Assembly: GCF_988243305.1 (NCBI RefSeq)
Contig: NZ_OZ547137.1
Length of the DNA: 64,000 nt
From: a plasmid
Reading direction: 5' to 3' (one strand)
Shown here: in pieces, positions 37,570 to 39,773 of the stretch
How the letters are laid out: every line of letters begins with the position of its first letter
How positions within the stretch are numbered: the first letter of the stretch is position 1
Translations under genes and position numbers: made by a program
Notes under the pieces: model-generated
The model's database searches: none
The model's input: the letters and a program-made list of their open reading frames with translations, nothing else
What the model was told of the DNA's origin: nothing

Positions 37570-38181
37570 TTATTTAGAAAACGTTGCAATTTTAGCATCA
37601 TTTTTTATTGTTCTTTTTAACCTGAAGTACGTCGATCGAGAGATACCTGTTTTTTCTGTCACACTGCCCAGAGATTCTCCCTGTGATATAAGCTCCAACG
37701 CTGTAGGCGTTCGTGGATGCTTCTTCCTGCCAAATTTTACGCCTGCGGCAAGTGCCGCTATTCTTCCGCCGTTTGTCCGCTCCAGAATACGCTCACGTTC
37801 CGCTTCAGCTACAGCAGCAAGGATTTGGATAACCATTTTGCCCATTGTCCCTTCTGTACTGAGACCGTTCTCCAGGAACCGGATGGCGATCCCCTTTTTG
37901 TAACAGCTATCAACCACACGGATCATGTCAGCAGTGTTACGCCCCAGTCGGTCCATTTTTGTACAGATGATTACGTCGTCTTTCTCTGCACGGGCCAACA
38001 ACCGCTGTAGTCCTTCCCGTTCATCAGTTGCGCCAGTCATAATATCCGTAAAAATACGATCTTCCCGTACCCCGGCATTTTTTAGCTCCGAGATTTGATG
38101 TGCTAAGAGAGAGACTTTTGGAGGAAATGGGCGCAGAACCCCATAATGGTGCGCCGCAGAGAGCCTGCTCACTGATACCAT
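37570..38181 (-). CDS. serine recombinase (resolvase/invertase family) with aberrant N-terminus
   Basis: Core motifs DRIFTD, KMDRLGRNTADM and C-terminal HTH; the N-terminus YGVLRPFPPKVSLLAHQ replaces the expected YARVSTxxQ catalytic-serine motif. Confidence 0.75.
   Translation of the reverse strand: MVSVSRLSAAHHYGVLRPFPPKVSLLAHQISELKNAGVREDRIFTDIMTGATDEREGLQRLLARAEKDDVIICTKMDRLGRNTADMIRVVDSCYKKGIAIRFLENGLSTEGTMGKMVIQILAAVAEAERERILERTNGGRIAALAAGVKFGRKKHPRTPTALELISQGESLGSVTEKTGISRSTYFRLKRTIKNDAKIATFSK
38101..38150 (-). repeat. right copy of the inverted repeat, inside the 5-prime coding region of the recombinase ORF
   Basis: rc reads ggggttctgcgcccatttcctccaaaagtctctc. Confidence 0.7.
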
Positions 38182-38267
38182 GCACAGCGGCGGCCTGCGC
38201 CCCGATGGCGACCGTGGGCTTCAGTCTGGTTTCAAATACCACCTGACCGGACGCATCGGTCAGGCCG

Positions 38268-38645
38268 TTGTTTGCCGATCGTTGCCAGGCCGGTTTTCCT
38301 TCGCCTGCCACTGATTATGCTGAGCAGGAACTGGATCTGAACAGCTATTGCATCAGCAGACCTGCAGCCACCTTCTTTCTGCGCGCCAGCGGTAAATCGA
38401 TGAACCAGGCTGGCGTGCAGAATGGTGATCTGCTGGTAGTGGACAGGGCCGAAAAACCACAACACGGGGACATCGTTATCGCTGAGATCGACGGTGAGTT
38501 CACCGTCAAACGACTGCTGTTGCGCCCACGCCCGGCACTGGAGCTGGTTTCAGACAGCCCGGAGTTCCGCACACTGTATCCGGAAAACATCTGTATTTTT
38601 GGTGTTGTCACTCACGTGATACACAGGACGCGGGAGTTACGCTGA
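38268..38645 (+). pseudogene. UmuD/MucA/ImpA-like SOS mutagenesis protein (S24 peptidase), 5-prime truncated
   Basis: GFPSPATDYAEQELDLN...ASGKSM...GDLLVVDRA matches UmuD from about its cleavage site onward; no in-frame ATG, only a TTG start; upstream in-frame stop. Confidence 0.7.
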
Positions 38646-39773
38646 TGTTTGCACTGGCTGATATCAACAGTTTCTACGCCTCATGTGAAAAAGTTTTCCG
38701 CCCGGACCTTCGCAACGAACCGGTCATCGTACTCAGCAATAACGATGGCTGTGTGATCGCGCGCAGCCCGGAGGCAAAAGCCCTTGGCATCAGAATGGGG
38801 CAGCCCTGGTTTCAGGTGAGACAAACGCGCCTGGAGAAGAAAATACATGTATTTTCCAGCAATTATGCGCTATACCACAGCATGAGCCAACGGGTTATGG
38901 CTGTTCTGGAGTCGCTTTCTCCCGCAGTTGAGCCCTACTCAATTGATGAAATGTTCATTGATTTGCGGGGGATAAATCATTGCATCTCTCCGGAGTTTTT
39001 TGGTCATCAGCTCAGGGAACAGGTAAAGAGCTGGACAGGACTCACCATGGGGGTGGGCATTGCGCCTACAAAAACGCTGGCTAAAAGTGCACAGTGGGCA
39101 ACAAAGCAATGGCCACAGTTTTCCGGTGTGGTCGCGCTGACGGCAGAAAACCGTAATCGGATCTTGAAGCTACTGGGGCTGCAGCCAGTTGGTGAGGTCT
39201 GGGGAGTAGGACGCAGACTGACGGAAAAGCTGAATGCGCTGGGTATTAACACAGCACTGCAGCTGGCGCAGGCGAACACGGCATTCATCCGGAAAAACTT
39301 CAGCGTCATTCTTGAGCGTACGGTACGCGAACTCAACGGCGAGTCCTGCATATCCCTGGAAGAAGCACCACCGGCAAAACAGCAGATTGTCTGTAGTCGC
39401 AGTTTTGGTGAACGAATCACAGACAAAGATGCCATGCACCAGGCTGTTGTTCAGTATGCTGAGCGGGCCGCAGAGAAACTACGTGGGGAGCGTCAGTATT
39501 GCCGCCGCATGCAGAGCCTTAAACCATGTCTGGCGTGAAGGGTACCGCTATATGAAGGCAGGAGTCATGCTGGCTGATTTCACACCATCGGGTATAGCGC
39601 AGCCGGGATTATTTGATGAAATCCAGCCCCGTAAAAACAGTGAAAAGTTAATGAAAACACTCGATGAACTGAACCAGTCGGGAAAAGGGAAAGTGTGGTT
39701 TGCGGGGCGAGGAACCGCCCCTGAATGGCAAATGAAACAGGAAATGCTATCGCCTTCGTATACAACACAATAG
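38645..39773 (+). pseudogene. UmuC/MucB/ImpB-like Y-family DNA polymerase, frameshifted near 39480-39540
   Basis: ORF 38645..39538 has MFALADINSFYASCEKVFRPDLRNEPVIVLSNNDGCVIARSPEAKALGI; the C-terminal part (YRYMKAGVMLADF...WQMKQEMLSPSYTT) is in another frame (39234..39773). Confidence 0.8.

Follow-up and report, generated by a model that had tools for sequence, protein, structure and literature searches.

A probable non-functional impCAB remnant on a pAA-type IncF plasmid of enteroaggregative Escherichia coli

Relatives and plasmid setting of the locus

The impCAB operon comprises a dinI-like gene (impC), a umuD-like gene (impA) and a umuC-like gene (impB); it is repressed by LexA and acts in error-prone translesion synthesis. 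In the intact copies carried by IncI1 and IncF plasmids (TP110, the I-complex plasmids and the Shigella virulence plasmid) the three genes lie in that order behind a LexA box, and the impA stop codon overlaps the impB start. When intact, this plasmid relative of umuDC confers UV protection and induced mutagenesis (PMC10286972, PMC7092418), and its unregulated expression is toxic to the host (PMC10286972). The chromosomal umuDC operon of E. coli, encoding DNA polymerase V, has the same two-gene architecture and protein families as the locus described here; the latter is a plasmid paralogue and is broken, and the natural imp operon has impC as a third gene.

We analysed a plasmid sequence of 64,000 nucleotides (contig NZ_OZ547137.1, assembly GCF_988243305.1; hereafter the window), in which an earlier note had described a degenerate and probably inactive umuDC-like operon and had proposed alignment to impAB and related operons. 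The description is upheld, and the nearest named family is impCAB. As an intact reference we used plasmid p140_MLI109 (NZ_CP117007.1), in which the operon (positions 67900–69826) has a perfect LexA box, TACTGTATATGTATACAGTA, followed by a dinI-like gene of 82 codons, a umuD gene for a protein of 145 aa and a umuC gene for one of 414 aa. Its dinI-like protein is exactly the UniRef entry 'Protein ImpC' and members of the UmuC clusters bear the name ImpB, so that the reference operon is impCAB and, by sequence, the two genes of the window are the impA and impB part of this known operon. Both share about 96–100% identity with plasmid impA and impB, overlap in the same manner, and match the UmuD and UmuC families. 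By comparison with the intact operons, however, neither gene is complete, the LexA box, promoter, impC and impA codons 1–20 are missing, and impB lacks 116 bp and is out of frame; the locus is a pseudogene remnant.

By its sequence the window belongs to an IncF pAA-type plasmid, the virulence plasmid of enteroaggregative E. coli (EAEC). Megablast of positions 37400–40300 against plasmids yields Enterobacteriaceae plasmids by the thousands, mostly conjugative; the full-length matches are EAEC pAA-type plasmids, including pAA of O104:H4. In other relatives the match span exceeds the query by about 1.4 kb and contains an IS3 family transposase gene. The closest record, CP056358.1, carries aggDCBA (AAF/I fimbriae), aggR, aap and aat nearby. 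Its imp locus differs from that of the window by one SNP, at 38872, and the two plasmids are collinear (at 99.83%) over 16056–44207 only, differing elsewhere.

Three copies of an IS3-family element of about 1.26 kb (7569–8826, 14795–16059 and 46849–48107), each 99.7% identical to the IS3 of CP056358.1, coincide with the points at which this collinearity stops. Collinearity also places idi and a gene for a class 1 isoprenoid biosynthesis enzyme at about 26900–28470, between aggR and the agg fimbrial cluster and flanked by transposase fragments. A SIR2-HerA anti-phage defence pair occupies 44454–46750 on the minus strand: the HerA-like protein has 602 aa (44454–46262), and the SIR2-like ORF beside it, of 163 aa, covers profile positions 219–331 of 392, seems to be 5'-truncated and lies about 100 bp from the third IS3 copy. 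From its sequence, the pair looks like another degraded system.

The scar upstream of impA and the truncated impA frame

Alignment with NZ_CP117007.1 shows that homology to intact impA begins at 38265, and everything 5' of impA codon 21 has gone. The operon had been thought to start at 38181, but imp-derived DNA does not extend that far; positions 38141–38267 instead hold an internal fragment of a 3'-5' exonuclease gene on the minus strand, 98–100% identical to the full-length gene of other plasmids. In IncF plasmids the gene normally adjoins a relE/yacAB toxin-antitoxin pair and, in one of the two plasmids examined, is near an FII-type repA; in pAA-EA11 (NC_018666.1, from EAEC O104:H4) RefSeq lists the fragment as a partial pseudogene. 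The exonuclease gene and impA have in common the three base pairs CCG at their junction (38265–38267), a microhomology that points to illegitimate recombination. This junction occurs in 35 of 5426 complete E. coli genomes, is plasmid-borne in all of them, and is present in many independently sequenced O104:H4 pAA plasmids.

Further upstream the scar contains a filler of 42 bp (38101–38142) that is 97.6% identical to DNA that, in a different plasmid, directly follows the 3' end of a pemK/mazF toxin gene, and then the remnant of a serine recombinase (resolvase/invertase) gene at 37570–38097 on the minus strand. The latter matches residues 16–184 of an intact 185-aa DNA invertase and lacks codons 1–15 and with them the catalytic Ser of YARVST (MALLGYARVST in the intact protein). 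The idea that this recombinase itself drove the rearrangement beside it is not supported, as the protein is truncated and has lost its catalytic Ser; the idea is also disfavoured by the junctions, which consist of 3-bp microhomology and unrelated filler rather than recombinase sites. The recombinase ORF as it now reads (37570–38181, minus strand, 203 aa) takes its first 25 or so residues from the pemK-side and exonuclease-fragment DNA, and both GenBank and RefSeq annotate the remnant as an ordinary 'recombinase family protein' CDS.

The control elements of the operon were sought separately. A search of the whole window allowing up to three mismatches did not find the LexA box TACTGTATATGTATACAGTA, and impC, present in the comparison sequences L001 and L007, is absent from the window. 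A simple consensus scan of 37300–40300, which cannot speak to read-through transcription, gave no sigma-70-like promoter on the plus strand. A weak LexA-like box had been suggested at about 38172–38187, and the letters CTG-N10-CAG are indeed there, but we regard them as a chance match: they lie inside the foreign exonuclease fragment, belong to a set of 32 such matches across the window and, unlike the box of the real operon, do not have an AT-rich centre. Elsewhere, CTGTTTATGGATACAG at 55577–55592 fits the stricter LexA-type pattern CTGT-N8-ACAG and is a candidate site, located a little 5' of where a tyrosine-recombinase-like ORF on the minus strand (54810–55550) begins.

What is left of impA (hereafter impA') is a plus-strand ORF of 125 aa at 38268–38645, corresponding to codons 21–145. 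An in-frame stop lies at 38244–38246, and therefore the TTG at 38268 is the first possible start; the missing codons are replaced by foreign DNA, and the gene is not complete. A hairpin with a 9-bp stem (38242–38264) sits directly before the TTG, inside the exonuclease fragment, and the only Shine-Dalgarno-like sequence before it is an AGG 3 nt upstream. The ORF matches the NCBIfam UmuD subfamily model NF007621 over all of its positions (1–115 of 115; 147.5 bits against a cut-off of 110, 1.5e-43) and shares 96% identity with the intact plasmid protein of 145 aa. It aligns with residues 17–137 of E. coli UmuD with many substitutions; its residue 1 falls on UmuD residue 17 and its Gly9 on the first residue of UmuD', so that the ORF starts 8 codons before the cleavage site. 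The view that the frame lacks an ATG, begins with TTG just ahead of the cleavage segment and would encode something near the processed UmuD' form is thus borne out. Cleavage site Ala8|Gly9 (UmuD Cys24|Gly25) and the Ser44/Lys81 dyad (UmuD Ser60 and Lys97) are both kept.

Two replacements in impA' are specific to this lineage: E43K (38394), which adjoins the Ser nucleophile, and P93L (38545), which replaces a Pro found in E. coli UmuD as well. Both are non-synonymous, with no synonymous change beside them, a pattern that fits relaxed constraint. PGAP nevertheless annotates the ORF as an ordinary umuD CDS.

A 116-bp deletion in impB

The ATG of impB overlaps the impA stop (TGATG), and codons 1–287, covering the palm, fingers, thumb and the start of the little finger, are found at 38645–39504 on the plus strand. 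The 5' ORF continues past the last native residue, 287 (…GERQYCR), through 10 foreign codons to a stop at 39536–39538, giving a product of 297 aa (38645–39538) that matches the NCBIfam UmuC model NF002955 at profile positions 1–289 of 422 (540.6 bits, 2.6e-162). UmuC homology resumes in a second frame from 39498 to 39773. The last 89 of the 414 codons (39505–39773, plus strand) are out of frame and have no start codon of their own; they belong to the third ORF, ending at 39773, whose residues 89–179 match UmuC profile positions 323–414 (152.4 bits, 1.8e-44). No single uninterrupted frame therefore includes the little finger and the C-terminal region.

The earlier note had placed a change of UmuC frame near 39480–39540. 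Two frames are indeed present, but their cause is not a point frameshift: compared with intact copies, impB of the window lacks exactly 116 bp, flanked in those copies by 8-bp direct repeats, TATTGCCG, which start at 4233 and 4349 in the intact comparison sequence L001. A single copy of the repeat survives, at 39497–39504, and marks the deletion, and the frame is shifted because 116 is not a multiple of three. A simple frameshift was rejected in favour of this repeat-bounded deletion, which recurs in independent assemblies: it is found in CP056358.1, from UK wastewater, and in pE1246_1 (NZ_CP025574.1), from Sweden, both of them complete plasmids sequenced in unrelated projects. A loss of this kind between 8-bp repeats is the classic signature of replication slippage or short-homology recombination.

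With the deletion, impB has lost its codons between residues 287 and 326. In an alignment with the solved structure of Pol IV (7yll), the lost stretch, QVTTFVRTSPFAVKEPCYSNAAVEKLSLPTQDSRDI, falls on strands of the little finger, and by this alignment the core of the polymerase little-finger domain has been removed. Since these strands are missing, a product restored to frame would still be expected to lack the little finger, an essential DNA-binding domain.

The 3' end of impB varies among intact alleles as well. The 'intact' allele linked to the parM/stb module of the window has 414 aa, and its last 10 or so codons diverge from the form of 423 or 424 aa (L001 4600–4625 against L003 5380–5460 in the comparison sequences); the impB 3' end thus appears to be itself a recombination boundary between two partition-module types.

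Origin of the doubly broken allele and alternative readings

Each of the two lesions is also found without the other. Plasmid pAA-EA11 has the recombinase, the exonuclease fragment and the impA' junction identical to those of the window, and its 125-aa truncated umuD ORF is the same save for two residues. Its impB, in contrast, keeps the 116 bp and is cut short by a stop codon close to its 3' end (398 aa), for which RefSeq lists it as a pseudogene with an 'internal stop', and its downstream partition genes are a different allele. The AAF/III plasmid pE1246_1 shares the 116-bp deletion with the window but has an intact impC-impA 5' end, and its umuC is flagged 'frameshifted'. To judge from these plasmids, and from the relatives with an IS3 family transposase gene inside the match span, decay of the imp operon is recurrent among them. 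The corresponding umuC genes are already pseudogenes in RefSeq; the literature on pAA and umuC yielded nothing beyond the comment that, from one pAA plasmid to another, umuC gathers SNPs.

We compared variable sites among five aligned sequences. At 38533 and 38535 the window has the bases of pAA-EA11; from 38826 on it follows pE1246_1, the downstream parM/stb allele included; across 38546–40300 it differs from pE1246_1 at one site, whereas pAA-EA11 differs at many, and among the five only the deletion carriers have 39274G. Because the allele of the window thus has a pAA-like left part and a pE1246-like right part, the two lesions were most likely united by homologous recombination within the operon, between 38536 and 38825. 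Afterwards, we infer, the lineage of the window gained the two further impA' changes, E43K and P93L.

Taken together, the locus is very probably a non-functional impCAB remnant on a pAA-type IncF EAEC plasmid, killed by two separate events. On our reading, illegitimate recombination at the 3-bp microhomology would have removed the upstream part of the operon, from the LexA box and promoter through impC to impA codon 20, and joined the rest to dead gene fragments beside the AAF/I fimbrial cluster, creating the junction common to O104:H4 pAA. Separately, slippage or short-homology recombination between the 8-bp repeats would have taken 116 bp from impB and shifted its frame, and homologous recombination within the operon would have put both lesions on one plasmid. 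The remaining ORFs would be inert leftovers from which no functional polymerase could be made.

Alternatively, faulty sequencing or assembly might account for both the impB 'frameshift' and the absent impA start, the real operon being intact. Single frameshifts are common assembly errors, but what impB shows is a clean loss of DNA between 8-bp repeats, with no homopolymer indel; its junction recurs unchanged in two complete plasmids that come from different countries and projects, and the exact 297-aa product is encoded on 201 public contigs. The 5' junction, for its part, is in the 35 complete genomes with their many independent O104:H4 sequences, and the exact 125-aa product is encoded on 403 public contigs. 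These counts effectively negate the suggestion that resequencing would restore a single UmuC frame and an upstream ATG; we give this explanation almost no credence, and the comparisons exclude sequencing error as the source of both lesions. The 116-bp deletion might instead have arisen twice, in the lineage of the window and in pE1246_1, by recurrent slippage at the same repeats. Short-direct-repeat deletions are recurrent by nature, and the two plasmids have different fimbrial clusters and different impA 5' ends. We nevertheless consider a double origin unlikely, given the single difference over 38546–40300 and the shared 39274G and stb/parM allele, set against the many differences of pAA-EA11.

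It might also be supposed that impA' is expressed, by read-through or from a cryptic promoter, as a LexA-independent UmuD'-like subunit, nearly pre-processed, which would pair with chromosomal UmuC and UmuD or disturb them and so modulate EAEC mutagenesis. The frame is still open, its first codon only 8 residues ahead of the cleavage site, Ser44 and Lys81 are kept, and the truncated form persists across pAA plasmids, the exact sequence seen in the window being on 403 contigs. That persistence, however, follows from how little these plasmids have diverged (over 99% identity), and the poor start context (a TTG with its sole AGG 3 nt upstream and the hairpin directly before it), the lack of a plus-strand promoter-like site in the consensus scan of 37300–40300 and the replacement pattern, with both lineage-specific changes non-synonymous and one at a Pro shared with E. 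coli UmuD, make expression very improbable. The narrower proposal that a LexA-independent, almost pre-cleaved UmuD'-like protein is translated from impA' and binds chromosomal UmuC or UmuD is, if anything, more doubtful still; if it were true, the protein would change the rate at which enteroaggregative E. coli, O104:H4 among them, mutate.

For the remnant as we interpret it, a copy freed of LexA control might plausibly be tolerated only when dead, because unregulated expression of impCAB is toxic. No new biology is implied and the practical weight of the finding is small. The sole weakness of the existing annotation is that automatic annotation still treats the truncated umuD as an ordinary gene. 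Both lesions, the exonuclease|impA junction and the loss of 116 bp, might be used to mark lineages of pAA-type plasmids, and the locus offers a clear example of how a mosaic virulence plasmid may lose an SOS mutagenesis operon stepwise: by illegitimate joining, by loss of DNA between short repeats and by recombination of plasmid lineages with one another.
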